DNA from: Schmidtea nova
Taxonomy: Eukaryota
Direction of reading: 5' to 3'
Length of the DNA: 64,000 bases
NCBI GenBank assembly: GCA_044892505.1
Contig: CM097882.1
Span: 241,118,001-241,182,000, forward strand
Shown here one piece after another: positions 1-62,089 of this stretch (its first letter is position 1; each line of letters opens with the position of its first letter). Position numbers and translations under genes: made by a program. The notes below the pieces were generated by a model, which ran no database searches, was not told the origin of the DNA, and saw only the letters and a program-made list of their open reading frames with translations.

Positions 1-1756
1 CATCCTGTTGCTTCTCTTCCATCATTGCTCGCATCATGTTGATCCTTGGATTTCCCTTTTTTAACTGTTGTAATCGTTGTTGCCTGACTTGTTCTTCTTC
101 TCGTCGTACTCTAGCCCATTCTTGATTATGTTTCTGTTGGCTTTCTCTATTCTCTCTTTCGGCCTCAGCTTCTATTAACTGGATCATGTTTATCTTTGGT
201 TGAGCAGCTTGCTGGCTTCCTTTTGCCATGCTTTCGATTATCTCGTGTAATCTGGATACCTCCTGTCTCAACTTGGCTTCTTTCATACTGGCTTCATTTG
301 CACTGCTGTTTGGGTTATTCCGTTGTTGACCCTGATTCCCATAGCTTGGTCGGTTTCCGTAATTCGGTCTATTTCCACTGTTTGACCAACTTCTCTGTTG
401 ATTACAGTCTCTTGACATGTGTCCGGTTTTTCCACATGTGTAACACGTTTTCCCATAACACCGATTTTCTGAGTGACCTTTTTGTCCACACAGTTTGCAG
501 GCTACATTCTGAAAACACTCTTGTTGCCAATGTCCGTTTTTCCCACACGTCTGACATTGCCTATTCTGCCTGTCATTGTAACTATTTCCTCCATTCGGGT
601 TCACCGTGATATATCCGTTGTTTTTCCTCGCTGGCGGTTCTTTGAACAATCTCTGCGAATGGGGAATACTTTGATTCATGTTTCTTTTTCCTTGTTCTTC
701 ATCTTCTGTCGTTTTTCCCATTACCACCGTAATTCTCATGTCGTTCATTGCCATATGCAATTCGAATAGGTTGGCTGCTTCCAACGCTTCATCTACTGTT
801 TTACATCCTTTGCATCCCACTTGTGCTCTGATGTCAGGTCTCCTGAGACCTCGTACGAATAACGCTGTCATCAATTCTTCGTCTACTGGGCTTCCTCTAT
901 TGAATGCCAGTTTCGCCAACTTTCTTAATTCACTTGCGTACACCGCATTTGACTCATTTCTCCTCTGTTTTCTTGCTGAGAACTCATCGAATGCTTCATT
1001 CAGCACTTTGTTTATCCCAAACGTCTGTTGGAAGAACTCCTTGATCGCTTCCCACGTTCTGGGTGGATTACTTCCCGATCTCTTTTCGATATACAGATCC
1101 AATGCGCTATCTTTCAAGTATAGCGGGATTCGATTTGCCAACGTTTCTGCACTCCATCCGCATATATCCACAAATATGCCAAATTCCTTCAGAAACGTAT
1201 CCAATCTACTGGCGTCTCCATTGAATGGTTCGCCCTTGAATTTTTCTCTTAGATCCTCTCTGTGTTCACTCATCCCGATTCCACTGTCTTGGAATACTGT
1301 ACTAGTTTTCTTTGCTTCTAGTTCACCACTTGTTTCTGAATTCGACTCTTCTTCTTCACTACTCTCTGTTTCGTTATCTCTTGATTCGCTTCTTGTTCTG
1401 TTTTCCCTGACTAGTTCACTGTCTATCGTTTCTACTTCGTTTCGTACTTCTGGATCCTCTGGGGTTTCTTCTTGATTCTCTTTATTACTCGAATTGTCGC
1501 TGATCTCTACTTGTTTGTTCTTTTGTTGCTTAGGTTTGTTACCTGTTCTTGTCCTTTTCGCTGCTTTTCTTTCTGCTTCCGTTAAGATTGGTATTATACC
1601 TGATCTTGTTTCTCGTCCCTCAATTTTGTCTATTCCTCAACTGCTTATATTCTCAACTGTTTTTCTACTCCGCTTTTGCTTTGCTTCTTCTTTGATTTGT
1701 TTCCTTTGATTGCTCTGACTGCTAGATTGCTTTGAATTGCTTGATTGATTTGTTTC
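1..1756 (-). CDS. gag: Ty3/gypsy Gag (capsid-like domain plus three CCHC zinc knuckles); open to the window edge, one in-frame TGA near 1637; missed by the ORF track
   Basis: Hand translation gives FNGDARRLDTFLKEFGIFVDICGWSAETLANRIPLYLKDSALDLY (retrotransposon gag motif), then CQTCGKNGHWQQEC, CKLCGQKGHSENRC and CYTCGKTGHMSRDC. First in-frame ATG after the stop is at 1273. Confidence 0.9.
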
Positions 1757-2144
1757 CTTAAAACAAATAATCACTTACACGATACGTCCCCGTTATCGTG
1801 TTTCTCGTCCCTCTCACGGGTGTAGTCATAATTCATGAAGATCCCCATTTTTCCCATTTCCCTTGATTTTGAGTCTATTTAAATTATCTATGCAGTCGTA
1901 TCAATTATCTATTCTTTATCAAATACACCAATTACTTTTCCCCAGTTCCCCAATTACTTTGTCGCTCAGCGCTCTTATTATTCCCTTTACTTTTCTCAGG
2001 CTTCTCTGGCTCTGAGTTCAAATCTCCCCTTATCTGTCAACTACTCTATTTCTCAACTATTCGCTTTATCTCCTATTCGCACTACGTTTACTACTTCATT
2101 CAATTCTCATCTCTACTCACCTTTAATTCAACTGACATCTCTCG

Positions 2145-2614
2145 TTGGCCTGTTGGGCTTTCCAATCAGCGCCTTTCATCTCACCTTTTATCTCGACTTT
2201 ATTATTCTCGACATCACTCATTATCTCATTAGCCTGCTGGGTTTTCCAGTCAGCGCTTTTAATCTTACCTTTTACTTCTGCTTCATTATTCTCGACCTCA
2301 ATTGTCGTTTCATTAGCCTGCTGGGTTTTTCCAGTCAGCGCTCTTATTATCCACCCTTTATCTCTTCACTGTCGACTTTTAACTGCTCTTTACTCCGATG
2401 ATCATCACTTTTGACCTGCTGGGTCTTCCAGTCAGCGTTCTCAATTTTTCCACTTTATTATTACTCACTTTTGTTATCTCGATCTTTCCTGATCGTTATC
2501 ATTGACCTGCTGGGTTTTCCAGCTAGCGTCTTTACCACTTTACTGTCTTAACAAACCGGTTTCATTTTATTCCCCTCGAATCTCATGGTCTACTGGGTTT
2601 TCCAGTCAGCACCC
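2145..2614 (-). repeat. Array of six conserved ~30-nt stem-loops at 84-98-nt spacing in the gag leader
   Basis: Core (+) CTGCTGGGTTTTCCAGTCAGC recurs at about 2145, 2229, 2313, 2411, 2502 and 2587. Spacers are more diverged than cores, and the stems show compensatory changes. Confidence 0.9.
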
Positions 2615-2933
2615 TTCACTTACTCACTTTACTTTACTACTCCTCTGTATGCATACTTTGACGTCATTAGGCCACATAATCAGCTTTACTCGCATTTATC
2701 AATACCCAGGTGCGCACCTTCAACTCTCTCATTATTACCTCGGTTTCTTTCAACCCTTATTCCTCATTATTCGCTATTCATTTTCACTATTCATCATTTA
2801 TCCTCATTATCATTTATTCATCTCCATTATCGCTTATTGATCTTTACTATCCGGATAGTTTTATACGTAATTTAGTCCTCATCTGCCTCACTTCGTCGTC
2901 TTTCTCGTGGGCTTTTACTCCATATTTTATTTC

Positions 2934-3445
2934 GAACGAGAACTATGCTCACCGCTGAGAACTATGCTCACTAACGAGAACTATGCTCAATGACGAGAAC
3001 TATGCTCACTGACGAGAACTATGCTCACTGACGAGAACTATGCTCACTGACGAGAACTATGCTCACTGACGAGAACTATGCTCACTGACGAGAACTATGC
3101 TCACTGGCAAAACATGGTTGTTATGAGGGTTCTGCTTACTGCTGGAAACTCTTTGCCCCGGGGACTATGTTCCCCGATGAGAACTATGCTCACTGATGGT
3201 GACTACAGGAATTATGTTTCCTGATGAGAACTAAGCTCACTACGATGACTATGTTTATTAATGAGAACTACGCTCACTGATGAGGACTATGTTCGCTGGT
3301 CTTGTGTTTATTAATGAGAACTCTGCTCACTACGAGATTTATATTTACGGACGAGAACTATGCTCACTATGACGAGACCTACGCTCACTAGGATGTTATG
3401 TTTTATGACGAGACCTATGCTCACTATGAGACCTATGCTCACGAA
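2934..3445. repeat. ~20-bp minisatellite (GACGAGAACTATGCTCACT unit), decaying rightwards
   Basis: Near-identical tandem units 2934-3106, degenerate units to about 3445. Confidence 0.95.
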
Positions 3446-4142
3446 CGAAAACTCGAAATATCATCTCTCAGTGGTTGCATGTGTTGCTTCGGGATGTTCC
3501 TCCCAGTGGTCACTTATGCTTCTTCGGAGAATCTATTGTCGCGTTTCGTTAAGTTCTATCTTTCAAGAACTATGGGCAAATCCTTTCTCTCTAGGACCCC
3601 TTTTATTATTTCCTTCCTTTCAAGGATTTCCTTTAACCTCGAGTTTTCCATTTACTCGGTTCGTCTGTTATACCCCTTTATTCTATTATCGATTCGTCAA
3701 CCTTTCTACTTGATTTTACCTTATGCGAGCTGATTACGTGCCTTTCATCATATACCACGTTTCGCTATTCATCCTACTCATTTCATTGCTTTCTCTCTCT
3801 CTTTACTGATCAGTTTATCCTCCTATTTTTATAGTTTTTTCTGCGCGCGCCTACACCTCATTAAGTTGTCCCTACCTTTCACCCCAACCAAAATATATAA
3901 AAAGATCGCATTGGTCCACTGATGCACGATGTGGTGATCAGTCACATCACAAGAGCTTTCCAATATCCGCGATTGGATCCCTTTCTACACATCTCGGGTG
4001 AGTTGATCAGTTGGTTCCCCCCAATGGGTGCTTATCGGACTACTCGTGAGTAGCTCATTATTACTTAGGTCATTTTTACCAAATCATTATTAAACCCTCA
4101 TAATTTCAACAACAACTGTACTTGTTCAAAACTTTATTTCTA

Positions 4143-4601
4143 TTACAAGTACACTGTTATTTTCTCGGATACGGGAAAATTGCACATAGGACATCGTTCG
4201 TTTATTTTACATTCATTACAGAATCGAAAATGCCCACATGGCAACAACATTATCTGTATCTTATTCATTTCACAGATGTAACACGTCAGATATTGTCTCG
4301 TATGTTCGGTTGTTATTCCTATCCACTCATCGTGTTTTGTTGTTAACTGTTGTTCTAGCCTGTGGCATTCGATATTCATCTCAGGGTTGTTTAATCGCTC
4401 TCTATACCACTGATATCGTGTTGCTGTATCCACTGTTATCTTATTCTCGCTTATGCTCATCATCATTTCGGCTCTTTCTGTGTTGTTTGTCGGTTCGTGG
4501 TATCCTCCTACCTCGAGTCGTCTTAACTTTCTCGTTATTGTCTCCACTGTTTCGTTGTTTGTCTCGAAAAACGTTTGCATTTCTTTTATTTTGTTCTCCA
4601 T
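4143..4601 (-). CDS. RING-finger (IAP/MDM2-type C3HC4) protein, putative E3 ubiquitin ligase, retroelement accessory gene
   Basis: 152-aa intact ORF ending CYICEMNKIQIMLLPCGHFRFCNECKINERCPMCNFPVSEKITVYL, the typical C-terminal RING layout of IAP/MDM2-like ligases. N-terminal helical region; no BIR domain seen. Confidence 0.85.
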   Translation of the reverse strand: MENKIKEMQTFFETNNETVETITRKLRRLEVGGYHEPTNNTERAEMMMSISENKITVDTATRYQWYRERLNNPEMNIECHRLEQQLTTKHDEWIGITTEHTRQYLTCYICEMNKIQIMLLPCGHFRFCNECKINERCPMCNFPVSEKITVYL

Positions 4602-5131
4602 CCCCTGAATGAATTCTCATTAATTTTGTTATCGATTTTTATTTATTATTTATTATTCCTATTCTATGGTAGCCCTACTGTTCGCTTTCTGTTGTTCTGT
4701 TTTGCGTCGTTACTTGCGTATCCCCCCGTGTTCTTGAATGTCGCCCCGACATGATCATTGTTAGTTGCTCACACTCATACCATTTTCATACACGCTTTTC
4801 AGCATACTTTTACCTTACGTCATGCATACTTTTCATCACTTTTCATACTGTTATTCCACATACTATTCATCATACTTCATTCGTCCTCATATTTTCACAT
4901 TCATACTTTCATTCTCATGCATACTTTTATCCCGTTCATCAATCTCATTATTTTACACTCATACTTTTATTTATTATTTTTCAACCCGATTCATTCTTGC
5001 TTCAGGACACTCAACCCTTCTGTTATTCTTTACTTTACTTTTCCTCGCTCAATTCAATTTCATACCGGTTCATGCGCTCTAAACTGTCCGCAGGTATCGA
5101 ATTCACTTTTTCCCACAAAGATCGATTTAAT

Positions 5132-5390
5132 CCCGGCTGAGCCCCCAAATTTATGCTGGTGTGTTGGTTAGATTGACAACTGAGATCCTTATGATTTTAT
5201 ATGTTAGGGTGATCTCGCCAACATAAAAACATTCCCCCGCTGACACCCATGATGTATCCCTAACTACTCATCATGTTGGTGCTGTGTCAACGTTGTGAAA
5301 TGACAAGGCAGGTGAGCAACCTTTCGGCTACTATTCCCTTGTTTATTCACGGGTCCACCACTACCGATAGAAGGTGTCTGTGGCTTTCTT
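5132..5390. other. Conserved non-coding module (copy A; related copies near 23555-23785, 46270-46540, 54150-54410)
   Basis: Shared boxes GCAGGTRAG ... CTAYTCCCC-like ... GGGTTCC-like ... TAGAAGG. Copies A and D also share CCCGRCTGAGMCCCMAAATTTATGYTGGTGYGTTGGT. Confidence 0.65.
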
Positions 5391-5543
5391 TCGGTCCCCT
5401 CTATAATACGCTCTTTCCTTTGCTCTAGGGTTGATTCGATGTTATCGTATCTGCAGATTTAAATGAATCCGGGTTTTATTCACATTCAATTCTCAGACAT
5501 TCTACAAACAAACAAGACAAGTCAAATCATTCGTTTTATACAT

Positions 5544-6143
5544 TTATTTATAGTTTAGCAATACCGAGGGTCTGATTACATTCAGAAGTTCTTGTTCAGA
5601 TAGACCGCTGAGCAAGTCTACTTCTATCCCGAGACGATCTGCGTAGGCACGTCTCTCTCTCCGCTTCTTCGCGCCGAGGCGATTCCTTCTCTTTGTGCGT
5701 TGTGAGCCTGCGGGAATTGTATTTGTCACTGTAGTAGCCGTGGCTATGGTCGATGCATTCTCTGTTTGGGTGCTCGTAGTCACCGCTATCGTGTCTATCC
5801 ATCGATTAAAGGTGCTCGCTCTGATCACGGGGCGCAATTGCTCGGTGATGAAGTCTCGGGTCGACACCTTTAAATAATTGGCCAACTCCAATTTCAGGGC
5901 TGCAATCTCTCTGGCATGTTCCTCAGCTACTCGTTCTGCCCTGTATCTAGCCTGCAGGATGGACTTAACCCGCTCTGGGTTAAACCATGTAGTCTTAATC
6001 CGCTGATGCTCCTCATTCAGCTGCCTTAATCGATTCTCCAGGACTCGTGAGCGCGCCTTATGTTCTCGCGCCTCGTGCTGGAAATCTCTGCCCTTGGTTT
6101 CCGTCATGTCTGTAAATATGTCATTAATGGTAGTATATGTCAT
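5544..6143 (-). CDS. Hypothetical accessory protein: N-terminal coiled coil, Thr-rich linker, Arg/Lys-rich C-terminal motif
   Basis: 199-aa ATG-initiated ORF co-oriented with gag; heptad-like charged N-half; KRRNRLGAKKRRERRAYADR. Confidence 0.65.
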   Translation of the reverse strand: MTYTTINDIFTDMTETKGRDFQHEAREHKARSRVLENRLRQLNEEHQRIKTTWFNPERVKSILQARYRAERVAEEHAREIAALKLELANYLKVSTRDFITEQLRPVIRASTFNRWIDTIAVTTSTQTENASTIATATTVTNTIPAGSQRTKRRNRLGAKKRRERRAYADRLGIEVDLLSGLSEQELLNVIRPSVLLNYK

Positions 6144-6294
6144 GTGTCTGATCTTTCGGTCATCCTATCGTCATTAAACAACTCCGCCTTATCATCATGT
6201 TATTCTCATACACTCAAAAACAAAACAAGACCGTTCTCACACAAATACATATATTTTTATATCTACGACAATCATTCTTTCTCGGCTGCATCAA

Positions 6295-6930
6295 TCAACT
6301 GAATGCCCTCAATTCCTGATCGGCAGGATGCTCGTCGCGACGAATTCCATTCTCCCAATACATTTCTGGGGCTGGGTTCCAACTCAGCTTATCTTTGTAG
6401 ATAAACACCTCCCAGAGGCGAAGCTCCTTGGGCTCGGGGTGTTGTTCCACGGAAACACTTCCTGGCGCATTTGAGTAGGCGAAGACTTCCCCAGTGTCGC
6501 CACACCGGGGCCTGTCTAGCAGCAGGTAACCGAGTTGATGTAGCTCTTTTCCGGACATCATTCCGGTACTTAGTAGCCATTGGGGTTGCTTTGACTCATC
6601 TAGGAATTGATAAAACCATCGGGTATTTTCCGGCTTGATACGATCCGAGGAGGGTACCCAATCGGTATCTCCTTCCCACCGCAACTGTAGTACAAACGCG
6701 CAAGCTGGGGTGCTAGCGGCTGAGCTCATATGAGCCCTCATCCATCGTCGTAGGTGGCGACGTGATAGTTCGACAACTTTTCGGGGTGCTTCGTTCTCTC
6801 CTCTGATGTTTGGGTTCGTATTTGGTCTGAGGACGGAGCGGGTGCGCCGTTTCTTACGGAGGATGGTATGCTCTAACTTTATAGGATACGCGACCATCGG
6901 CTTCTCTTGGTAGCTTTCTAGTTTCACCAT
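6295..6930 (-). CDS. Hypothetical accessory protein, no recognisable domain
   Basis: 211-aa ATG-initiated, GC-richer ORF co-oriented with gag; basic RKKRR patch. Confidence 0.6.
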   Translation of the reverse strand: MVKLESYQEKPMVAYPIKLEHTILRKKRRTRSVLRPNTNPNIRGENEAPRKVVELSRRHLRRWMRAHMSSAASTPACAFVLQLRWEGDTDWVPSSDRIKPENTRWFYQFLDESKQPQWLLSTGMMSGKELHQLGYLLLDRPRCGDTGEVFAYSNAPGSVSVEQHPEPKELRLWEVFIYKDKLSWNPAPEMYWENGIRRDEHPADQELRAFS

Positions 6931-8079
6931 AGTATTCCTAAAGAAAATGGTTGTTTTTAATCTACTGATTCTACGGCAGAACGGGCCTATTTATATTAGT
7001 CAACCCACCCGTCTTATTGATGAAATTTTGTAGGTCTGAGTGGTACCTTCTATATTCTTGCCGGATCATTGTTGGTGGCTTAACGTAGGTCGTGTTAGAT
7101 GATAGCTTGAAGCTAATATGCTCCGCTTTTTATTTCGACGATTCAGCTACGCACGATTGGTTGTATTTAGTAATCATATTGCTATTATATTTAATTTTCA
7201 TCAATCAGGTTCAACCACTCAACTACAACCGTTTTTATTTATTGAAAATACTATTTATTACATTCAATCTCGTCAGTCGTTCTCAATCACTTCCTCATCT
7301 AACCAGCAATGATCATACCATGTCGGGTAATTCTCGTAAGTTCCTGTGGTCCTTACTCACTGGGGTTCACCATTTTATCAGTTCTCGATGCCTGTGATTT
7401 ATTTATCATCTCTCCTGGCGACTAAACACAGCTGACAGAGGTTATCGATTATCCTTAACCCTTGATACTAGGTTCACTATGCCCGAACTCGTACGCGCTA
7501 ATGTCGACATATACCTACCCTTGTCGTCACCTAATTCATCTACACTAATGTTATTCACTACACGTCTATCCCTCGTCTAGACTTCGCCGCGATATATATC
7601 CTTCCTACAAAATGGGCTTCACTTTACGCTCGTTTACGACTACTAGTTTATACTCGATACCCTATCATCGTGATGCATAACGTTTATATTAGATCATCTC
7701 TACCTTGATTTCGTTCATGATCATTAGGTCTTACTCGATACCCTATGTGCATTTAACCCCTTCCGCTTTCCAAATATTTAATACACCTATGGTCCCGCCG
7801 CATCAGCACCTCACAACCGAAAGATTGTGTTGCGCTGAGAGGCCAGAGAATCCGTCAGGCTGTTAGGCCTCCGGAAAACCTTATTGATTTTAACATGTTT
7901 ATAAACAATTATGAGGGTTTAGACACATCAATAACATAACACCAAATTACCTTTTATTTCCAACTGGTTTCCAATACAAGGTTGTTACAAGTTATCAGTT
8001 ACGACTTGCACTCGGTAAAATTGACATTGTCAAATACTGATTTGACTTCAGTATTTATACTCAACCGGTGTTGTTGGTT

Positions 8080-8500
8080 AGCCAATCAGCATCGAGTATG
8101 TGTGTATGTTTGCTTCATTATTTTGTGTTGTCGGCTTTTTGCTGCCTAACTTAACTCGCCGATTTATTTGGTTAATCATGCGGTAAGTTTATTTTTTTGT
8201 ATGATTTAATTTTTATTTGATTTTGCTTTAGCTCTTCGGTGACATCCGCCCACGCGCTGTCATATTCAGATTTTTTTCTGTTTCGCATGAGTAAGTTTTG
8301 AAGATTTTTGTTGTTTTGATTAATATTTTATTTCTTTTAGATGTTGCCGCCTATTTTGTTACGCTTTGGTGTTGGTAATTTATTTTGTTGTTATTCTGTA
8401 GTTAATTTATTTTATTGATTGTATATTATTTTCAGATGCTGCTCGATTTGGCTGGCCCAACACCCATTTGGGGTCACGAGATATAGTTTAAGAATCCCTA
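8080..8500 (+). promoter_or_regulatory. Putative promoter and spliced 5' leader with three short introns
   Basis: CCAAT box at 8082; GT-AG introns with T-rich bodies at 8183-8231 (49 nt), 8291-8340 (50 nt) and 8375-8435 (61 nt). Confidence 0.45.
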
Positions 8501-9025
8501 ATGTAATTGATAATAAGACTAAGCACGTAAATGAAATTAGTTTCTAACTTTTTGAAATAAAAATTAAGAGTCGCAAAACTTTTTTGGAGCCCCTTATAAT
8601 ATATTTGCAAATATTTTTAAATTAAAATTTTTTTAAATAATATTGGTCGCACCCACTCTTAAAATATTTTTAAAATTAATTAAATAATAATTAAAATAAT
8701 TAATTGGGTGCTTGATCGCTGTGAGAGATTGTGGGGCGAACCTGGAAGCCGTTAAACGGACTTATCGAAATCTATATAAATCTTATATGAACATGATCAA
8801 TGAGAAAGCACAATATCCAATGACATAAATTCCAACGAACCAATGGATATTTCAACTCTTCCAGAAATGACAAATTTCTCTTCGCATAATAATAAAATAG
8901 ATTCACCTTTAACTATTTTGAATCAAAACAACACCAACGGATGTGGCGTAGTGTCTCCGGGTTTACAAAATTACGATTAATTTTCTAATACTGAAACGTC
9001 TACTGCAGAAGGTGTAAATAAATAA

Positions 9026-9447
9026 ATGGTAGATGACACCGGTGATTTATATGCCGATGATGATGAGGCTAGACCAACTGGGAGCCCGGCAGAGAGAAAA
9101 AGCTTCTAAGTGATACGATAACAGTTCGATGCTTGCCATGGAAAACTTAAGTAATGTTTCGAGTTCCAAACAATTCTACAAATTTGGATAAAAGCCAGCG
9201 ATCAACGGGCATTTTCCTCCAATGCAATGTAGAATGCGAATCCACTTCATGGAATTGCAATGCTAAAGCTAAAATAACGTTGGTATCTCAACAGAAGTTA
9301 GCCGCCAGTGGGGAATTGTCCCAGCCAGACGAATCACCTAAACCGACAAATGAAAACGATAAAAATGCTAACTCTCACGATGTCGTTAGGACTATTGAGC
9401 ACAATTTCTATTCTATTAGTGACAAGTCTATTGAACTAAATTTGTGA
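9026..9447 (+). pseudogene. USP7: USP7 N-terminal MATH/TRAF-domain fragment, disrupted
   Basis: In-frame VRCLPWKT*VMFR...STGIFLQCNVECESTSWNCNAKAKITLV...VVRTIEHNFY matches USP7 VRNLPWKIMVMPR...[28 protein letters not shown]...FSRRISHLFF. Upstream DDDEARP resembles the pre-MATH segment. In-frame stop at about 9148; no catalytic domain. Confidence 0.8.
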
Positions 9448-9869
9448 TTAATTTAGAATTCTTAAATTTTAAATTAATATTGGAGTTATTGAAAATTTTT
9501 TATATTTTTGAGTTTTTTTTTGATTAAAGGTGGAAAATTTTGGGTTTTGGTTTTTAAATGATTTTTTGGTAAATTGTAAAAATTTTATGATTTAAAATGA
9601 TTTTTTGATAAATTGGAAAAATTTTATGATTTAAAGTGAAAGATTTGTTAATTTAGTTATTTAGTGTTTTAATAATGGTTTTTGGTAAATTTGGAATGGG
9701 ATAAAGTTTGAAATTTAAATTTTTTGCTGAATAATGGGTAAACTTTGTAATGGTTTTGAAAAATTGGTAATTTTGCCTAATAAATTTGTGCGATTTAATG
9801 AAAATAATAAATCTGATTTAATTGGGACTTTGATGGTTTAATTTTGGAAGATTGGCTTGCTAAATAAAC

Positions 9870-10529
9870 ATGATACTAGAAAATGGATTACTTTCTGTTG
9901 GTGTTCGAGGTTGCGATATGACCGATATGATAGGAAATGTAAATAATATTGACGATCAATTGGTAATGCAGATTTGTGACTTAATGCACACCTGCCCAAT
10001 GTATGGCGGCCGATGGCCTTATGGAGTTTCTATGCTCTTTGTTGGATGGGATAAAGAGATGTTTTATCCTGGATTTATGGATCTGAAGAGATCATTAATT
10101 AAATCAATTGTTGAGCAATTCGGAAATGATATTGAAGGTGCAGAATTATTAGATGCTTTGAATAGGTGCAGCTATGAGCGTATGAACGAACTAGCTAGTC
10201 AATTATTTGGTCATATTTCTATCCAGCCTGATGACAAGCAGCAGCTAATTGATGTGTTCTGCCAGGAGGTAAATGATGCTGTTGTTGGCGAATGGGAAGG
10301 TGAAACAGTTCCCGTTAATGGGTTAGAGGAGAACATTTGTTTGTCTTCGGATGAGGAGGAAGGCATTGGTAGCGATTCCCATTGGACTTCGTCTGCGTCC
10401 TCGTTGGTGTATATGGATGATGATAATGATGATGACAATGATTCCGTCGAGAAAATCAGAAGAACCCGACCGATATCAACCAAATATCATTCAGATATTT
10501 TCACAGCAGTTATATTAAAATTTTATTGA
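9870..10529 (+). CDS. Chimeric 219-aa ORF containing a ~35-aa proteasome alpha-3 (PSMA4-like) fragment and an acidic tail
   Basis: QLVMQICDLMHTCPMYGGRWPYGVSMLFVGWDK resembles PSMA4 [33 protein letters not shown]; the remainder is not recognisable. Confidence 0.6.
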   Translation: MILENGLLSVGVRGCDMTDMIGNVNNIDDQLVMQICDLMHTCPMYGGRWPYGVSMLFVGWDKEMFYPGFMDLKRSLIKSIVEQFGNDIEGAELLDALNRCSYERMNELASQLFGHISIQPDDKQQLIDVFCQEVNDAVVGEWEGETVPVNGLEENICLSSDEEEGIGSDSHWTSSASSLVYMDDDNDDDNDSVEKIRRTRPISTKYHSDIFTAVILKFY

Positions 10530-11137
10530 AACACAAACTGTTAGTTTTCTAATAAGCGGAAAATATATTTCTAGAAAATAAACAATTTCTAAATTAAATT
10601 ACAATTCATTTCTCTGGCTCATAGTCAATATACTAACGCTTAATTAACTGGAAATTGTGCTCAATTTTAATTTTTGGTGGATGCGGATAGATCCGAATGT
10701 ATTACGTAGTTGAATTTCCTGTGATTTGGATTACGTGCTAAGGGTTATATTTTTCCTTATCACAAACCTTTCCTTTTTGATTTTCGCTGTTACATCTTCG
10801 CCTGGAATCCACTTGACTTTTCTGGATTTTGGATCGTCAAAATTTTATTGAGTTGAACTTATTTGATAAAAAGTTTTTTTTATTATGGACATTCATTTAA
10901 AACATCAACTTGATTTTCAACTTTATTTTTCTTTTTTCAATTATCACTGAATATTTATATTATTGTCATCTTTTGCATAAACCTTTGATGTTTTTCTAGT
11001 TTTTCTATTAACTTTGATGCCGTAATTATTAGAAAATAAATAAAATAATTCCCATTCGATATATTTATATTAAAAAATAATGAAGTTTGAATTTGAACAA
11101 TATTCGAAATTCAAATTTTCCATTTGCTACACAAAAT

Positions 11138-12953: not shown

Positions 12954-15900
12954 TTCGAAAATGAACATATTAATAATAAATACAACCTTTCTAAATCAAA
13001 TAAAAGATATGATTTCCTGAATAAAACAATGAACATTTGTGCTATAATAGTAAGTAAAATATATTCCATTCACTATAAATATCACCGGTTTACGTAGAAA
13101 GCACCCTATTTCACGAAGGTCAATAAAAGTGGACCATTCTCCATGGAAAATGTGTCTGGATTTTTCACGAAAATACTCTCTAATTTGGGTGAAAAATTAA
13201 ATTTCCAGTACGTTAACTTTTTTAATAATTAATTTTTTTGAAATATTAGTATTTTTTTTCTTTTTTGGTTTGTAGTAAATATTTAAGATATTTTAATATA
13301 AATGAATCAATTTTATAAAGGGAATAATTATGATATTTTTTCTACAGTGTCTTTTTTGGTCTGATTAAGCATGTCAAACTTTTTCGAAGTAATAAAATTT
13401 ATAAAATTTTTAATTCAACAAATATTTAATGATAAAATTATTCATTGCAAACATTACTTATATTAATTTCCTGAGTAAGTTTCAGTTAGGTTGCTTACTA
13501 TGGGGTAAATCTAGGACCGAAAACTTTTTTAGTTATCTAGTAATATCATTACGAACAGATAAAAATAAAAAGGCAGCGTATGTTCCTTCATGTTTTGCCA
13601 AAATTCCCAATAACTAGAATTTGTTCAATCAAAAGAAAAATAAAAAATTAGTTCACACTTAAAGACAAAATATTGTCTCACGTCAATTTAGTTGAACAAA
13701 TGAAACTTTAGTGTATTACGGGAGGTTATCTATACATTCATCGTATTCGATTCAGTTTTCACCAAAAGGTTATTGGTAAAAATGACAATATACAGATGAC
13801 TTTCCATCAAGTTCAAGATATTATTAAATTCTCTGATTCAAAGTCAGACAGGTGCTTCCTATGTAAATTTCTTCGCATTTATTACACGTGATTTCGACAC
13901 AACAAACAATATTTACTGAAGTCCTTCATCGTATTGGGTAACGATATTAGAAAAAAGAAATCCAACCTAAGAATGCAGAAAGATTTGCAAAGTAAAATAA
14001 CATTTATACTATATTAATTATCGGATCAATTTTATGATATTTAAATATTAAATTAATGCTGCTGCCAAGAAATCACCATTTTCCAGTGGTGTACCTAAGG
14101 TAAATGGTGCCTATGGCAAACACCAATCTTGCGCCCCTCCCCGACGATATTAACACTATTACAAATTTATCTTTCTTGCTTACCCTGACGCAAATTGTTT
14201 AATTATATTATCATAGTCAATTTCTTTCGGTCATTTCTCGTTCTATGCTAAGTAAAGCAAGATCACATAATCGACTTTGATTCATCGAGGCTCTCAAATA
14301 TGAAAGTATCAATTTTAATTTGCTAAATGATCTTTCGCAACTGGCGATAGAAACCGTGATTTAATACACGATTTTAGAAAATGAGGATTGAGAAAAATAA
14401 AAAGTTTTTTAAGCTAAAATGTAAGTCTCGATATGATTCAATTTTTTCGTGGAAGTTTTCTTTTATCTTTATTATTTTTCCTTCTGTGCTCATTTTAAAA
14501 GAAAATTTAGGGGTAGGGTAGGGGTAGTGGAGGCTCTCAATAATAATCATTATAAATATAACAAAAATAAAACCTGTGCGCGATAACCTATCCGTTGCTG
14601 TGGGGCTGACACATTTTCAAAATGACTTTCTCGGATCTTATTAAAAGATTTCCAACACAAAAAGTCTTCAGTGCAATGAACTCTACCTAACTGTAATCAG
14701 AAGAATTAAAAAATGACGAATATTGAAAAGAAATGTAATTTTTACCTATTTTTCACTGTTTTCACGTTTTTGTGCCTTTGCACACTTGTTACAAAAACAC
14801 CTTCAACATGTGAAATGTGAGGTACAATGTGCTAAACTAATCAGCTTCGAGAAAATATAAAAATTGTATATGGACAGTGAAAAATATGAAAAATCAAAAA
14901 ATCAATAATCAAAAATATAAACAACAAAAGTTATTAAGGGGGAGCTATGTGCGCGATAATTCATCCAGTGCTAGGAGACACACATACCATACTATCGTCC
15001 TTCTGATTAAGTGATACGTCTCTAAAATTTACACGATTACTCTTCTGTATCCATTTTACATTAGTAGAGTAGGGGGAGCGCCCAATAACAGGAACAGACT
15101 CCCGCCCCCTAAAAATTTTTTTACTCTGGGCTTTTTGTACAGGAATTTTTGAATTGGATTTTTGATTTGGATTTTTGAATACAATATTTTGATCTGGTTA
15201 TTTTGTATAGGATTTTCTACTTCCAGATTTTTCTCAGGCAAAAAGGGACTCTGGCTTTTTTGTACAGGAATTTTTGAATAGGATTTTTGATCTGAATTTT
15301 TGAATACAATATTTTGGTCTGGTATTTTTGTATAGGATTTTTTGTCTGGTTATTTTGTATAGAATTTTCTACTCCGAGATTTTCTCGGGCAAAAAGGGAC
15401 TCTGGATTTTTGTACAGGAATTTTTTAAACATTGATTATTGGTCTCGTATTTTGTATAGGATTTTTTGTTCGGGTATTTTTGTATAGGATTTTTAGTCTG
15501 GTTATTTTGTATAGGATTCTCTACTCCGAGATTTTTCTCGGGCAAAAAGGGACTCTGATAATTTTGAATATGATTTTTGATCTTGACTTTTGTATAGGAT
15601 TTTTAGTCTGGTATTTTTGAAAATAATATTTTGGTCGGAGAAAATCAAAAAAAATTAAAAAGTGGTCAGAATTCAATAATTTTTATATCAATCTACTGAG
15701 AATTGAAAGCAAACAATAATGGTCAAAAATTTAAAAATATGAAAAATTGATCTCATCCGACCAATTTTTACACGTAAAAAGGGTCAACTCGGGGAATTTC
15801 CAAAAATCAAAAATGCTCAGAATTCAAAAATTTTTATACCAATCTACTGAGAATTGAAAGGCAAACATTTATGGTCAAAAACTAAAAACATGAAAATTTT

Positions 15901-18900
15901 GACTTATCCGCCGACCAATTTTTATACGTAAAAATGGTCGACTCGGGGAAATTCCAAAAAATCAAAAATGCTCAGAATCAAATAATTTTTATACCAATCT
16001 ACTGAGAATTGAAAAGCGAACAATAAAGGTCAAAAAATTAAAATTATGAAAAATCAAAATTTTATACGGAAAATGTCAGTCTCAGTAAAAAAGGATAAAG
16101 TACATAAAAAACGTGGAAATATTTAAAAATAATTTTTAAACTAAATAATTAAATCTAAATAAATTTATCATAATTAAATAAAAAAGTAAATAATTTCTAT
16201 ACGAATTTCCAAACTCAGTAAATAATTCGCTCAATATTTTTCTATTGAATTTATTAAGTAAAATGGTACATTAAATAAAAAGCTTGGAAATAATAAGTAA
16301 ATTAAAGTTAGAATTTTAAAATAAGTTGTACTGGATTTATGAAAAATGGTTAAGTAAATAAATTAAAGATAGAATTTTAAAAATAAATTAAGAATTTAAA
16401 GATAAATAGAATTATAAGCAAATAATTTTTTAAAAAATAAGTAAATTAAGAAAGACGTGAGTTTTAATGTCATTATTTTAAAATGAATTGATTTTATATG
16501 AACTTTTAAGGAAATATTTGAAAAATGTGAGAATTATTAAATATTTTTGAAATTTTTTAAAGTAAAATTTTTTTTTAACAATAAAGTCAATGTTTAATTT
16601 TTTTAACAATAAAATCAATGTAAAATTTCTTTTTAAACATTAACCAACAAGTAAATTTATTTAATTAATAAATACAAAGTAAATATTTTTCACAATTAAA
16701 ATTTTTAACTAATAAATACAAATCCTAATGTTTTTCAATATAATGTTTTTTAAGGAAATGAATCACCAGACTAAAAATCCTATACAAAAATCCCAGACCA
16801 AAATATTGTATTCAAAAATTCCTGTACAAAAAACCCAGAGTCCCTTTTTGCCTGAGAAAAATTCTGGGAGTAGAAAATCCTATACAAAATAACCAGAGTA
16901 AAAATCCTATACAAAATAACCAGATCAAAATATTGTATTCAAAAATCCAGATCAAAAATCCTATTCAAAAATTCCTGTACAAAAAAGCCAGAGTCCCTTT
17001 TTGCCTGAGAACAATCTGGGAGTAGAAAATCCTATACAAAATAACCAGAGTAAAAATCTTATACAAAATAACCAGATAAAAAATCCTGTACAAAAAATAA
17101 ATTANNNNNNNNNNNNNNNNNNNNNNNNNNNNNNNNNNNNNNNNNNNNNNNNNNNNNNNNNNNNNNNNNNNNNNNNNNNNNNNNNNNNNNNNNNNNNNNN
17201 NNNNNNNNNNNNNNNNNNNNNNNNNNNNNNNNNNNNNNNNNNNNNNNNNNNNNNNNNNNNNNNNNNNNNNNNNNNNNNNNNNNNNNNNNNNAGTAAATTA
17301 AAAAAAAATTAATATAAAATAAAAAAAAATAAATTAAAAATAAATTAATTAAAATTAATAAGTTAATTAAAATTAATTAAAATTAAAAATAAATTTATTA
17401 AAATAAATTTAATTAAANNNNNNNNNNNNNNNNNNNNNNNNNNNNNNNNNNNNNNNNNNNNNNNNNNNNNNNNNNNNNNNNNNNNNNNNNNNNNNNNNNN
17501 NNNNNNNNNNNNNNNNNNNNNNNNNNNNNNNNNNNNNNNNNNNNNNNNNNCAAAATAAAAAAATGAAAACAAATTCATTTCATTTAAACAAATATTTTAC
17601 TAAAAATTAAAAACAAGAACAGGGGGGTAAAAACTTAGAGGGGGCGGGGGTCTGTTCCTGTTCTTGGGCGCTCCCCCTACTCTACTTACATTTCGACATG
17701 GAATAATTATCCTAAAACATTTTAACCAGTGTAGTAATTTCATTTATAAATGTAAATCTAATATTTAAATTTCATCTTTTAGCCCCGTAATTTATTTACC
17801 AAGTGACGGTCGTTATGGAGCAAGAGTAGAAAATCAAAGTTTATTCACCGGTTGTGTTGGTGATGTTCAATCGCAGGTAACTAAACCTATATAAGCAAGC
17901 TAAACATTCATAACTTTATAACATTTTAGAAAGCTACTTTTGCAGCTGCAAGTTTTACAATAAATGATGAAAGAATGAGAGTTGTTGATTATACATATCC
18001 TATTATGTCGGATCCGTCAGTAGTTATTTATCAGAATCCTATTGCCAAATCTCAGTGGTGGNNNNNNNNNNNNNNNNNNNNNNNNNNNNNNNNNNNNNNN
18101 NNNNNNNNNNNNNNNNNNNNNNNNNNNNNNNNNNNNNNNNNNNNNNNNNNNNNNNNNNNNNNNNNNNNNNNNNNNNNNNNNNNNNNNNNNNNNNNNNNNN
18201 NNNNNNNNNNNNNNNNNNNNNNNNNNNNNNATGTATTTAGTTCATTCAAATATGAGGTTTGGATTCTCACTTTTACTGCCTTAATTTGCATTTCAATTTT
18301 CGCAACAATCTTTTGCAAATACAATCCGTATTCGGCATGGAACTTAAAGTTACCGTTTGCCATCGAAGATGAGATTCTGTATACAGAACACATTTGGAGA
18401 TCGGTCGGAGTAATTTTTATGCAAGGTTACACATTTTGATAAAGCCTTTAAACTAAATTTCACCTAAAATCATCACTATCGTTACTAATGAAACTTATGT
18501 TAAAATGAAAAGTAATTTTATCAATCTATACTTTCATAGCTTACTGTCAATTAACTAAGAGTGTAATTTATACGGTACAATCTCACGCTACAGTCGATCT
18601 AGCTTATTGAAACAATTCTTTTAAGGGTAATGTGTGTTTTTAATTGTTTGATTCAAAATGACGCGCCTTCATTTTTTTCATAAACAACTTTAGAAATTTT
18701 GTAGGGACCCTAAAGCTATTATTGTATCTACGTTAACTGAATGATGTTTCGATTCTTGTTCATCATTATGGAACTTAATAGAAATATTAGTTTTCTCAAT
18801 ATTACCTTTTTTTAATGACTGATTCAACAATTGTAAAATTTTATATTTAATAGAAAGATCAATTGACATAGAACAACAAACCACTTATGTTAGGCAAAGT

Positions 18901-21900: not shown

Positions 21901-22484
21901 GCTTGATCAAATAGAACAAAAGAAATTATCGTTGTGAAATTTGTTGTGGTTGACAATCGTAAAGTGTAATAACAAATATACGTTGGGAAATCAGAGTTTA
22001 TTGATTTGTCTGAACACGAGGAGTCAGAGTAACCAACGATCAATCTTGTGTTATTATAAACCCAACAATTATTATTATTATTATTATCAATAATTCTCAT
22101 AATGATGACTATAGATCAAAATTTTTTTTATAAACAATAACATTTGTTTATAAAAAATAATTTTGGTCTATAGTCATCATTATGAGAATTATTGATAATA
22201 ATAATAAAAAAAGATCAAAGGTGAANNNNNNNNNNNNNNNNNNNNNNNNNNNNNNNNNNNNNNNNNNNNNNNNNNNNNNNNNNNNNNNNNNNNNNNNNNN
22301 NNNNNNNNNNNNNNNNNNNNNNNNNNNNNNNNNNNNNNNNNNNNNNNNNNNNNNNNNNNNNNNNNNNNNNNNNNNNNNNNNNNNNNNNNNNNNNNNNNNN
22401 NNNNNNNNNNNNNNNNNNNNNNNNNNNNNNNNNNNNNNNNNNNNNNNNNNNNNNNNNNNNNNNNAATAACAATAAAAATATTAA

Positions 22485-22539
<55 letters not shown>

Positions 22540-25500
22540 TAATAATAATAATACCATCATTTTCAGTATATTTTTTAATATCATATTTTGATTTATAATA
22601 TAATATGGGCCATAAATTGGACTCTCTGCTTTCCTCTCTCCAAATCCTCTCGATTCCTTAGACCCTTTTTGAATTTTTCCGCATATGACATTGGTTTCAC
22701 TGCCAAAATTTCTTTAGATCTGTCCTTTGTTTTCTCATAAATTTTTGCTAAATCATTTCTCTCTTTGTGAACCATCTTAGGTTTCGTCGTAAGTACCTCT
22801 TTCAATCTTTTATCTCTCACTCTGTGCATAATAATCTCACTTACGATTTCTTCCTTTGACAATCCTGAATATAAAACTTCTTCCACGATTTTGAGAACTC
22901 GAATCTCGAAAGTAGCAAAACGTTCCTTGTCATCTTGTCTGATAGTTGCAAGATCCTTGATTTTATCTAATATTGACATTTTTATAGTGAATGTTTCTAA
23001 ATACTGTGAATAATTATTAATAAAACTTTTAAATAGCAAAGTGCTATGAAAATCAAATAAATACCACAAAATCTATTTATAAAATTCTGTCAGTAACATT
23101 TTGACAACGACATTTTGACCTCGACGTTTTGTCCGCGACATTTTGTCCATGACATTTTGTCCGCGACATTTTGTCCACGACGATTTGACCGCGATATTTT
23201 GTTCGATGACATTTTGTCCTAGTATCATTTAATCTATATCTGAGGCTGTGCAAAATATACAAATATTACAAATGAACTCTTTAATAAAATCATTTATTCT
23301 TTCATACTTATGGTCGTTTTTTTCCAAAATTTCTCATCTTTACGTCAAATAGCTAATTCTGATTATCGAAAAAACGTGCCTGATCTAATTGAGCTAGATA
23401 TATAGGCTGTCAAATGGCAGTCACATTTCTTTGAATTTATATAAAATTAGAAATAGTTAGCGACGAAAAGACAATCAGTGGCGTTATATACATATTGTTG
23501 AGAAAACCTAAATAATAAAAATTAAATAATATTTTAAAATGGTTAAAAATATTGGGAAGTATGGGTGTTGTCACAAAAATGATTATCGCTTCTATGGATT
23601 AATACAACTCTTAGCCCATCAAAAATATTAAACTAGCTCACTCGTGTACCCATAGTTATTCCCTGTTTAACTATGTTAGTACTGTACACAGTGGGAAAAA
23701 TTTAGTGAGCAGGTAAGTTTCGTTACTAAAACTACCCCCTACTATATTCTCCCTTTCGGGTTCCTCATGCGATAGAAGGACTTACGCATATACTTACTTT
23801 ACGTTCCTATCGCATGATTAAATCTTACCTTTCTATTACTTGATTTTATCTTTGATTTTCACTTATTCATTCTTAAAATAATATACATAACCTTTTTAAA
23901 CTGCCTCGATGTCCTTTACACTTATGTTCTTAATTTTTCTATTCCCATCCCCTAAATTTAATTGACAATAATTTTTAGGTTGTACTCACTGCACCCGCCG
24001 AACTTCGAAGAATCCCCAGTAGTGCTTTCACCCTCGCGGCCATAAACCACAGAGGATGCACCTATTTATTTTAAGAGCAGACATTAATCGGGAATCTCTT
24101 AATTAAAACAAAATTTTTACCTTTAACCTTTATTGTAAACATTCCATACTGATTACTTCAAAAATTATTACCCCAAAAGAAACAAAATAATATTTCTGAA
24201 AACGATCCACGTAACTGACTAGCGAAATCCAAAAATTTGCTCTCGGTAAATTAATGCCAAGTCAGTTTTGATTGTGATTTTTCAGCGTCTATTTGTACCA
24301 ATTCAACTGACGCCTTATATGTTGTTATTTAAATGATGTTAAAGATTTTAACTTATTTATCAGTTTTGATAAGTGAATATTTATTTATTTTTCATAAATT
24401 TAACTTTATAATTTGATTTATTTATTTTCTTAAATATTTATTTTTAATTCTATTGAATGATGTGTGTATCCATTGTTTTTTGTGCATTAATTAATTGATT
24501 AAAACAAACAAATCTTTTTTTATTCCTATCTTTGTTATTTTTACAATATTTCAATGGGGAATTTTTCTTTAATTTTTAATAATTTGTTTTCTTTATTCTT
24601 ATACCAATTTTATTCTTTGATCATGCTTTTTGTATTCATTCATAAGCATTTATAAGTATTCATTCATGAATTTCCACATTCAATTCTCGTGTGGTCCTTT
24701 GTGTGTAAATCTGAAATGCACTCAAATTGTGTGCTCTCTTTTGAAGATGCCTCTTTTATCGTTTCAATCCTATTTCGACCAAGCTCTCAGAAATGAAAAG
24801 GGAAACATGAGAAAAAATGGAATGTGCTGTAGACAAAAAATTGAGAAACAAAAAAAGTACTAGAAAAAGGCAAGTAATAAAAGGGAGAAATAACAGCATA
24901 TGAATCAAGAATTAAAAATTAGTGAAGAAAAGTGAATAGATTATAGAGATTAGAAAAATTAAAGAAAAATTATTGGAAACGAATTTGATGAATAATTATT
25001 GTGGTAGAGGAAATTGATAAAGGAATTATTGAGTTAAAAATATAAGTGAATTATTGGATAATGTGGAATCAAAAGAAAATCAAAGATTTAAATTAAACGT
25101 ATCTGAACAAGAATTAATCACTTTACTCAAAATATGAAAACTACCAGATCGATTTGTAAATTATTGAATCAGAGGCAGTATTGAGGGATATATAATTCAA
25201 AGTGTTGTAAAACATAATGCTAATCTTCACATAGTGTCGTAATAAACACTACATAACAACATGTGGTGATTCCTTTCGAATTTTTGTGTTTATTGTTGCA
25301 CTGAATAATATGAGTTTGGTATTATTATAATTTGTGTAATCATTTGTGATAATCAATAAAGCCTTATATTGTTTGAAAATCGATATTTTGTTGGTTAATT
25401 CAAGGACGCTTGGAGTCACGTAATTAATTGGAAATATTTTAATTAACCAACAAAACAACAACCCAACAATATATAATGTTAGTTCGAAAGAAATGTCTGT

Positions 25501-31327: not shown

Positions 31328-31374
<47 letters not shown>

Positions 31375-53479: not shown

Positions 53480-53800
53480 ATTTGAAAGTACCTCAAAAAG
53501 ATTTAAGCATACAATCCAATTGCACAGGACATTTTTCACACTCAATTACACAATTTTTACAAAATCTAGAATGTCCGCAAGATAATGACATTATTTGAAT
53601 CTCGTTGGTTCTACATAAACAACAGTTTCTGTACTGCTATGCTCCTTCCATCGCTAGCTTGGTCCATTCTTGATATTTTGTTGTTAATTTATGTTACATT
53701 CGATAGCATTCAAAATTTACCTCTGCACTGTTTACTCGTGCCATTTTTTTTACTTGTACCATTTGTAAAGGGTTTCGGTATCTATTCGCATTTTCCTTTC
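53480..53800 (-). pseudogene. Decayed homologue of the RING accessory gene at 4143-4601
   Basis: IDTETLYKWY..ECYRM*HKLTTKYQEW..QYRNCCLCRTNEIQIMSLSCGHSRFCKNC..CP aligns with VDTATRYQWY..ECHRLEQQLTTKHDEW..QYLTCYICEMNKIQIMLLPCGHFRFCNEC..CP. Confidence 0.85.
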
Positions 53801-54951
53801 CATTAATTTTATCAATTCTCTAGCTTTTACTTTTTGGTTCATGAGTTCGATGTATTCTATCTCTTTTAATTCGATTAGTTTCTCGAAAATAGCTTTTATT
53901 GCTTCACTTTCGGTTTAGAGAAATTCTCTTGATTTGTCTATTTTCCTTTCCTTTTACTAAATGGTTATTATATTTATAACTTCCTTATTTTTCAAGGGTT
54001 TATTTAGATAATATTGCGCCTTTGCGTAGTGATGACTTTTGTTTCTTATTGTTTTGATTTACATTTATTCTTGGTCTTTTTTAAAAATTGCCATCCTGGC
54101 TTTAAAATTAAGTTGTAACCTTCATATTTTTGCAATAAATTCAAATCAATCCCGACTGAGACCCAAAATTTATGTTGGTGCGTTGGTGTCAGAAAATTAA
54201 AGTTTAATCTGTGTCAAAGGCAAACTGTTTACGCACCTTCATAAATTGATTCTTCTTCCGCTCAGGTACCCGCAAAATCAACTAACAAATGTTTTACGTT
54301 GGTGACGTACCAGACGGCGTAGACTAAATGGGCAGGTGAGCAGTCACGGAGGGCACTACTCCCCAACTTCGCCTAATCAGGTTCCTGTGTGAATAAAAGG
54401 TCAACTTTGCTGACTCTGTCAATTGTTATTAATTACTCGAGGGTCATGATTTGTGTCGGGTCGATTGAATTAAAACCACGCGGTTGATAACAGTTTATTG
54501 GTGGAGGTTCTTATTTGGTTTGGTGATCTGGCTCAGACTCGGTTGCTATTTTTCTATCTGAATGTGTGCGCTTTGGTTTTTAATTTATCAGAGTGATTCT
54601 TATGTTGCTCGTGTCTGCGTGCAAGGTGTATTATTTATTTGATAATTTAAACTTGCTTTTTAACGGTTCGTTTACATTTGAAAAAATACCAGTTTGATTA
54701 CGATTGGGGTGTCTCAGACACCCCATTTAATTTTGAGTCATTGGACTTTGTGCGACAACCGGAATCAAAATTTGCTTGGCAATTGATTATCTTCTCATTT
54801 ATTCTCCTAATTTCTGACAATTTTGATGATAGCAAAAACCCTCTTTATATCCAACATACTAAATAAGAGATTGAAACAAACCAGCGTTTTAATTAGTAAA
54901 AGTATGTGAGCATACTATACATAACTAAAAAGTCTATTCAATGCAGTTGGA

Positions 54952-60499: not shown

Positions 60500-61012
60500 C
60501 TAATTATTAACTCTACCGCTTAAGATCTTCCAAACAGGTAAGATGGCAGAGCTTGGAGCTATCTTGTAACCTTGAATACGGACGACCAAGTTCCATTTAT
60601 AGTTTTCTTTGAAATGTATCTGAATATTTCCTTCAAAAAGCTTTGTTGATGGACCACCGATAAATGCACCATCTTCACCTAATAATAGTTCTTTGTTTAT
60701 TCTACTAAATAATGTTCTAATTGCCTCTCGATCTTCTAGCTCAAAATCTTCTATCCAGTAATTGTAGCTAGTCTTCACTAAGGGAACCGGATTTACTAGC
60801 ATAAAATCTATTGGATTTTTATATAAAATCATCTTGAAATCGTGGTAAACATATTCGGGTTTGAAGATTGAAATTTCTTCTTCCTTCTTCAAGGTTTCTT
60901 CATTAAACTTCATCTTTTTCTTCATCGAATGTTCACTTGTTTCCTTCATCATCAGCTGAAATAATGAAAAAATATATTTTGCAAACACATACTTTCTCAA
61001 ATACATACACAT
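60500..61012 (-). CDS. Hypothetical Polinton protein
   Basis: 170-aa ORF (probable start at the MMK near 60955), charged N-terminus and beta-rich C-half; no recognised family. Confidence 0.6.
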   Translation of the reverse strand: MCMYLRKYVFAKYIFSLFQLMMKETSEHSMKKKMKFNEETLKKEEEISIFKPEYVYHDFKMILYKNPIDFMLVNPVPLVKTSYNYWIEDFELEDREAIRTLFSRINKELLLGEDGAFIGGPSTKLFEGNIQIHFKENYKWNLVVRIQGYKIAPSSAILPVWKILSGRVNN

Positions 61013-61128
61013 CTGTATTTTGATTTGGCTATTTTATTCTATCAACCATTCACATGCATGTTAGTATAATACAACATCCAATCAGTATTATACATAAACA
61101 TGTGTGTATTTCATAATATTTTGCATTA

Positions 61129-61581: not shown

Positions 61582-61589
61582 TAATTTTT

Positions 61590-62058: not shown

Positions 62059-62089
62059 ACAAAGTTGTTGATTAATATTATTTCGAAAT

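Follow-up and report, generated by a model that had tools for sequence, protein, structure and literature searches.

Here we describe the left end of a 64,000-nucleotide stretch of Schmidtea nova DNA (contig CM097882.1, assembly GCA_044892505.1), which is called the window below and by which all positions are numbered. The minus strand from position 1 to ~7.8 kb appears to be the 5′ end of a multi-copy planarian long terminal repeat (LTR) retroelement of Burro-like build. In it, an open reading frame (ORF) for a RING protein of 152 amino acids (aa) lies between the primer-binding site and gag, and this gene very probably belongs to the retroelement. It is the only ORF internal to the element on this side of gag; two further ORFs, of 211 and 199 aa, stand upstream of the primer-binding site. 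The preliminary description of this DNA had seen a single cassette of three genes 5′ of gag, which the primer-binding site at 5147-5130 splits.

A RING gene between the primer-binding site and gag

The features on which this reading rests are as follows.
2..1636, minus strand: gag-like open frame, with an acidic/basic N-terminal stretch, a capsid-like region, three CCHC knuckles and then a Q/E/R-rich tail
4143..4601, minus strand: RING ORF of 152 aa, with an N-terminal domain of ~100 aa followed by a C-terminal IAP-type C3HC4 RING
5130..5147, minus strand: primer-binding site of 18 nt, the complementary sequence of which terminates in CCA and is consistent with tRNA positions 59-76
5544..6143, minus strand: 199-aa ORF upstream of the primer-binding site, with a strongly basic C-terminal stretch
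6295..6930, minus strand: 211-aa orphan ORF upstream of the primer-binding site, with no relative detected
53523..54342, minus strand: fragment of a second, diverged and decayed element, with an R-U5-like block, a primer-binding site and a broken RING ORF

The three accessory ORFs all begin with ATG, and an ATG ORF of at least 150 aa never arose when 4000-7100 was resampled 1000 times with an order-2 Markov model. The three intact, co-oriented ORFs originally described, with their sizes, and gag were borne out. The window edge cuts the element, so that 545 codons of the gag-like frame are present, stop-free and open at the left edge, and pol and the 3′ end lie further left. The frame begins ~2.4-2.5 kb after the RING stop and has its first ATG at 1273. 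Its three knuckles (CX2CX4HX4C, ~556-404) match PF00098 with an E value of 4.9e-11, and it stays open for 134 codons past them to the edge, including the tail of ~130 aa. A Pfam profile search gave no match to Retrotrans_gag at E 0.1, and the frame shows weak similarity (22% over 67 aa, E 0.004) to the gag that a different element within the window carries. On these sequence features, "gag-like" seems a fair label. There is no BIR motif in the 545 codons within the window. No relative was found among 1471 near-length candidates, and no locus in viral or metagenome contigs, in a search that did not extend to polyprotein-sized relatives; the frame may be fused into a Burro-type polyprotein.

The RING ORF matches PF13920 (zf-C3HC4_3) at E 4.3e-9, above the cut-off, and keeps eight of eight zinc ligands. 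Ten of its 12 PDB matches are IAP RING constructs (cIAP1, cIAP2, ML-IAP and XIAP) and none of the 12 is an MDM2 chain; of the "IAP/MDM2-type RING" first proposed, the IAP half is borne out. Neither a CX2CX16HX6C motif nor a Pfam BIR match is present in the protein. It ends a dozen residues past the last cysteine with an aromatic penultimate residue, like the tails of IAP RINGs, which mediate dimerisation. No relative of the ORF was found among 29 candidates, and no viral locus. We propose that the protein would act as a dimeric IAP-type E3 in which the N-terminal domain substitutes for a BIR; this conserved domain is likely to be the substrate arm. One residue counts against full activity: an Asn follows the last RING cysteine where the aligned cIAP chains have an Arg, a position that matters for E3 activity, and the E3 may therefore be weaker. 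Our best guess at its target is a stem-cell protein that acts in cell death or in transposon silencing. The analogy is with Burro1: SMEDWI-2 represses it, and it is reported to carry a BIR plus RING module.

The primer-binding site, which we take to be of the tRNA-Pro type, sits between the RING ORF and the 199-aa ORF, and no tRNA gene lies within the window. The two element fragments are ~49 kb apart. Alignment of 5122-5318 with 54141-54342 gave 129 identical bases of 184 (score 73; the best of 100 shuffles scored 45), and the second element has a decayed equivalent of the primer-binding site at 54166-54149. Its broken RING paralog (53960-53523) is 33% identical to the RING ORF over 153 aa, the N-terminal domain included. 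Since the order of U5, primer-binding site and RING is found in two families, the RING is an internal gene 5′ of gag; this recurrence upholds the original assignment of the RING gene to the element. In both families the best-conserved motif of the R-U5-like block (5305-5318 and 54330-54342) reads on the plus strand as a splice donor, CAG/GTGAG, a hint that a spliced antisense transcript may exist.

The same comparison bears on two other readings of the ORFs. The preliminary description had raised an LTR end near a TATA at 3830, with all three ORFs in a single U3 at ~3.8-7.7 kb and that TATA as the LTR promoter. TATA and initiator-like motifs do occur at 3833 and 3810:
3805..3833, minus strand: TATA-like sequence (3833) and initiator-like ATCAGT (3810), a candidate internal promoter by consensus match only
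But TATAAAAATAGG starts at 3833, 1.3 kb inside the element; in two families the RING has the primer-binding site and the conserved block on its upstream side; and no listed CA-TGG candidate in 3800-1636 resembles a tRNA end by eye. This layout is largely refuted and very improbable. A multi-kb U3 with ORFs survives as our leading reading for the 211- and 199-aa ORFs, whereas the RING lies past the primer-binding site. It is equally improbable that the ORFs are host genes invaded by retroelement pieces: promoter-like and polyadenylation-like signals accompany each ORF, as that would have it, yet the ORFs are intronless, exist in many variant copies and have a retroelement-like strand skew, and the RING paralog likewise stands behind a primer-binding site.

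Differences between copies were examined in a small sample preselected by the tool, 40 listed out of 764. Fifteen of the 40 fall in the four frames and give 14 codon changes, 10 of which are synonymous, where the neutral synonymous expectation is 0.26-0.30 (binomial 0.004 at p 0.33). By frame, synonymous changes number 5 of 7 in gag, 2 of 3 in the RING ORF, 2 of 2 in the 199-aa ORF and 1 of 2 in the 211-aa ORF; the three accessory ORFs pooled give 5 of 7 (binomial 0.043). A plus-strand ORF at 9870-10529, taken as a contrast, has none synonymous among three listed changes. None of the 12 listed indels lies inside an ORF (58 more lie beyond those listed), and in low-depth contigs several of the joints listed leave out portions of the accessory ORFs. 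The codon changes point to purifying selection on all four frames.

The abundant block and the extent of the LTR

To read copy structure, contigs from four runs of one study, among which the window's own sample may be included, were aligned to 1-10500. Every one of the 30 bins was covered in all four, and numerous variant contigs stood at each site. Two features upstream of the primer-binding site are needed here.
5148..5398, minus strand: very abundant block of ~250 nt that adjoins the primer-binding site upstream; R-U5 in the leading reading, or a whole short LTR
6996..7808, minus strand: repeat DNA without coding sequence that shares the strand skew, possibly the 5′ part of U3; 7808 is one candidate outer end

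The bin 5251-5600 had 8, 29, 26 and 24 times the interior depth in the four runs. In three of four runs the block ended sharply at 5398, where 20-23 unlike contigs diverge from the window (agreement ~0.5). No TG stands at 5398, and the adjoining sequence, with 10 of 15 purines, is no polypurine tract. Past the boundary, the loose letters show a strand bias (X1, T 23 and A 3 of 30; counted by hand, X2, T 17 and A 8, and X4, T 23 and A 2), and the A-rich skew of the minus strand extends to ~8600. Integrase target flanks should be symmetric, whereas other U3s, polyA tails or L1-type target sites would be A-rich. We therefore read 5398 as a U3/R junction, because it has no TG, no polypurine tract and A-rich flanks on the sense strand.

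The layout would then run from a long U3 with the 211- and 199-aa genes, through an RNA start at ~5398, an R-U5 of 250 nt, the primer-binding site, the RING gene and a repeat-rich leader, to gag. We give this layout as a whole, U3 included, an even chance of being right, and for the placement of the 211- and 199-aa ORFs in a multi-kb U3 the balance is likewise even. The packaged RNA would carry the RING alone 5′ of gag and the two U3 genes at its 3′ end, from where reverse transcription would copy them to the 5′ LTR. First-strand transfer at the 5398 junction may swap U3s between families with a common R-U5.

Several points weigh against this layout. The depth of 5601-7700 is 0.33, 0.92, 0.91 and 0.73 of the interior, where at least twofold is expected of a U3; the U3 model therefore requires that U3 vary between subfamilies. 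Summed contig depth is not copy number, and the runs come from a single study. There is no TATA 30 nt upstream of 5398. The outer TG end is not fixed, the TG starts at 7989, 7941, 7808 and 7308 being no better than chance. Not one of the 32 contig pieces listed spans 5398. In the window comparison, neither the 211- nor the 199-aa ORF has a homolog in the second family. Finally, genomic RNA must read through sense polyadenylation signals in U3 and after the RING.

These points touch two alternatives. In the first, which we consider doubtful, the LTR would consist of 5398-5148 and no more. The 211- and 199-aa ORFs would then be 3′ accessory genes, placed after pol and before the 3′ LTR, in a truncated unit that precedes the gag-bearing one and shares this LTR with it. 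The sharp boundary suits such an arrangement, as does the depth of the block bin, which is that expected of solo LTRs, and in three of four runs the upstream ORF region is near interior depth. Set against this are the missing TG and polypurine tract and the strand-biased flanks, the finding of no pol remnant when 7-10.6 kb was compared with the rest of the window, and the requirement for a tandem plus a truncation. CA candidates for the LTR end lie at 5162, 5160 and 5154, with no significant TG partner. With either this arrangement or a long U3, the 211- and 199-aa ORFs would be genes of the RNA 3′ end, with the RING alone 5′ of gag.

In the second, which is less probable again, the 211- and 199-aa genes belong to a different, unrelated repeat element, into or beside which the gag/RING element inserted. 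These two ORFs are GC-richer (0.49-0.52) than RING and gag (0.38-0.42), and both their absence from the second family and the lack of bridging among the listed contigs are what such a neighbour would give. Yet they share strand, skew and a similar depth with the rest, and the 24 loose-end rows listed contain no deep, uniform end before 5399, which is a weak point since 2244 more rows exist. No terminal inverted-repeat partner was found for 5398 or for 8789. Single-contig joints at 5162-10002 and 7249-8680 were too thin and were set aside.

Homology searches placed neither upstream ORF. The 211-aa ORF had no homolog among 200 candidates and none in 1.84 billion representatives, and no match in the Atlas, Pfam or NCBIfam and no significant one in the PDB; an impression of a chromodomain found no support and was dropped. 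For the 199-aa ORF, bZIP_1 fell short of the cut-off (E 0.047), Atlas matches at 0.81 were at chance level, and no viral locus was found. None of the ORFs has a transmembrane segment, and single-sequence folds reached a pLDDT of 31 and 34, too low for a fold search. The 199-aa protein might be a basic nuclear regulator, an assignment we hold to be rather unlikely.

Candidate signals for expression of the accessory genes and gag

The following candidate signals and repeats accompany the genes, in the order of transcription.
6964..6995, minus strand: TATAAATA (6995), with ATCAGT (6969) following at the canonical distance; the pair lies 60 nt ahead of the 211-aa ORF and is a candidate promoter of the U3 genes by consensus match only
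6213..6261, minus strand: in the interval that separates the 211-aa from the 199-aa ORF, TATAAAAA (6261) and after it a T-rich tract with its closing AG at 6213
5502..5548, minus strand: AATAAA (5548) overlapping the 199-aa stop, after which T-rich sequence leads to an AG at 5502; polyadenylation downstream element and/or splice acceptor
2936..3453, strand not assigned: 19-bp tandem array in the leader, nine copies with 94% matches, then a degenerate continuation
2136..2612, strand not assigned: degenerate 84-bp repeats in the leader
1757..1775, minus strand: T-rich, 3′ splice-acceptor-like site; the base after AG opens a codon of the gag frame
1637..1756, minus strand: coding-like in-frame extension of the gag frame, separated from gag in the window copy by one stop (1639-1637)

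In the proposed element, the U3 genes would use their own promoter at 6995/6969. The RING, as the first ORF of the LTR transcript, would be expressed from a short RNA ending past the AATAAA that directly follows its stop at 4138, in the manner of Drosophila MDG1-group sORF1. The RNA translated into Gag-pol would be a processed one, made with the acceptor at 1757.

Between 5398 and the first gag ATG at 1273 there are 96 ATGs, and because they precede it the gag ATG is unreachable by scanning; none of them lies within 1760-1274. By T count, the 1757 site is the T-richest of 312 AG sites in 3800-1274 and third of ~810 in 1-8800, where the top three are 6213, 5502 and 1757. Against it, the site was outside the top 25 under the first, more complex acceptor score, and the ranking is score-dependent. 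All reported flatworm spliced leaders end in an ATG that is usable as a start (PMC12582326), and trans-splicing at 1757 would therefore supply an in-frame Gag start. The position of the site suggests that the gag start is supplied by splicing at 1757, possibly by spliced-leader trans-splicing. Cis-splicing, to which we assign a probability a little short of even, is at least as likely as trans-splicing of a leader that brings the AUG, which comes slightly behind it; an internal promoter with the ATG at 1273 is a weaker candidate than both.

The T-rich tracts at 6213 and 5502 may be polyadenylation downstream elements only. Taken together with the other signals they would also fit an operon-like lineage, which as a joint reading we consider unlikely. 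In such a lineage, polyadenylation signals after the accessory genes and T-rich acceptors would allow trans-splicing into single-gene mRNAs, and the terminal AUG of the leader would start gag. A RING without BIR would be conserved between primer-binding site and gag, the two-gene U3 module would be swapped between families at the U3/R junction, and solo LTRs would be self-contained gene cassettes.

The 19-bp leader repeat (2936-3453) holds CTGACGAG/CTGATGAG on the plus strand, which resembles the first core box of a hammerhead; the GAAA partner is absent. An Rfam scan of 1-10600 gave no match.

Neighbouring repeats and comparison with known elements

To the right of the element, 8755-8789 on the plus strand equals the SmedSL1 exon at 33 of 35 positions (by eye against Fig. 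S6 of PMC10899757). The exon is followed by an intronless, decayed, USP7-like MATH sequence (8748-9447, plus strand) with no GT donor. SL1 joined to intronless MATH sequence in this way is therefore a retrocopy of a trans-spliced mRNA, and a heterogeneous end at 8789, tried as an LTR or transposon end, was rejected, since the spliced leader has its 3′ end there. Contigs over 8835-9316 are near-identical to the window and ~20-25 times deeper than the shallowest listed contigs; the retrocopy was therefore amplified after it formed. It is possible that SL1-MATH retrocopies were the source of the MATH cargo of Burro. The ~7800-8747 stretch directly 5′ of the spliced leader is very abundant, with 18-30 contigs at 8745 and short intron-like stretches on the plus strand, and could be the repeat unit of a spliced-leader gene or an element carrying retrocopies headed by spliced leaders. 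The repeated 219-aa ORF at 9870-10529 (plus strand) has a weak N-terminal match to a proteasome subunit (PF00227, E 0.008) and an acidic tail.

Further features lie elsewhere in the window. An intronless ORF of the Bcl-2 family (61117-61581; PF00452, E 1.3e-7) stands within 60500-63998 beside a 508-aa frame with motifs like those of family-B polymerases by eye and no Pfam or PDB match; 60500-63998 is possibly a Polinton/Maverick end with an anti-apoptotic gene. A small, frameshifted gypsy-type element with reverse transcriptase and integrase and 123-bp terminal repeats of 95% identity occupies 26501-31027 (plus strand), and 377 bp of its gag recur as an inverted copy at 22623-22999. At 48800-51200 (minus strand) is a decayed element bearing reverse transcriptase (RVT_1, E 9e-16) and dissimilar to the gag-like frame 2-1636, and at 40337-42581 (minus strand) a broken hAT transposase. 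Near-perfect palindromes and inverted arrays of a 152-bp satellite occur in 31369-31953, 22072-22210 and 15123-17096, with palindrome identities of 97% over 588 bases and 91% over 140.

Burro/GYPSM1 elements are giant gypsy-like planarian LTR retrotransposons with an internal region of up to 25 kb and a total of >30 kb (PMC6431247); their LTRs must be multi-kb, as the difference between the two lengths requires. In the same source they encode a single polyprotein of ~5,000 aa, with an internal region >20 kb, that includes Smc, MATH, BIR, BCL2, ankyrin and Env-like parts; ubiquitin- and apoptosis-related domains are reported, and a Burro-like element of D. tigrina has an accessory MATH ORF upstream. 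The element described here is like them in its planarian host, in an N-terminal Gag with three CCHC knuckles as in S. mediterranea and a frame that continues past the knuckles, and in ubiquitination/apoptosis cargo, an upstream accessory ORF and tandem repeats. It differs in that Burro has an upstream MATH ORF and a BIR within the polyprotein, whereas here the RING stands alone without a BIR, and in its two orphan genes upstream of the primer-binding site, which section 7 of PMC6431247 does not mention. Homology searches of the element's proteins returned no Burro sequence. Set beside Burro by description, and with host and three-knuckle Gag in agreement, the element works like a Burro-type, cargo-laden planarian LTR element in its build. 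The SL1 exon in the window places the host among planarians, so that the comparison with Burro made at the outset was apt.

In the parts of the sources compared, Burro1 is repressed by SMEDWI-2 (PMC8532177), and its B-IAP, a BIR plus RING module, is reported to protect stem cells (Lee et al. 2026, Dev Cell, as cited in PMC13465017). B-IAP and the RING ORF, compared by these partial descriptions only, are alike as IAP-type RINGs encoded by planarian retroelements and unlike in the BIR, of which the RING ORF has no motif. In the Drosophila MDG1 group, as far as the portion of the preprint used goes (bioRxiv 10.1101/2025.03.14.642691), sense sORF1 and sORF2 sit in the stretch that separates the 5′ LTR from gag, and an internal polyadenylation site right after the first ORF yields a short transcript. 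An ORF between LTR and gag followed by a polyadenylation signal is the shared trait; the MDG1 ORFs, the first helix-turn-helix-like and the second fusogen-like, have ~110 and ~70 aa, no splicing was seen in the long RNAs, and that portion describes no RING.

Among vertebrate viruses, the accessory genes sag of MMTV and nef of HIV lie within U3 or overlap it; in walleye dermal sarcoma virus, orf C precedes gag and orf A/B stand at the 3′ end. The likeness to these Retroviridae, compared by layout only, is that a single accessory gene comes ahead of gag and the rest are found at the RNA's 3′ end.

An IAP module in Burro1, which we know second-hand, and ORFs 5′ of gag are already published, and neither the type of cargo nor its position is new. 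The literature searched, which included parts of PMC5408684, PMC6338049, PMC4558846, PMC11410931, PMC13238120, PMC2770079 and PMC8629364, held no description of a RING without BIR behind a primer-binding site, of two orphan genes upstream of such a site, or of leader-supplied gag initiation in an LTR element; Lee 2026 and Grohme 2018 may cover all three.

If a second lineage keeps an IAP-type RING without BIR as a gene of its own under conservation, these elements would have captured ubiquitin-pathway genes repeatedly or in modular fashion. The RING protein is small, which makes it an easy target for knock-down and assay. A gag start taken from the host spliced leader, if true, would tie the expression of a retrotransposon to a host pathway.

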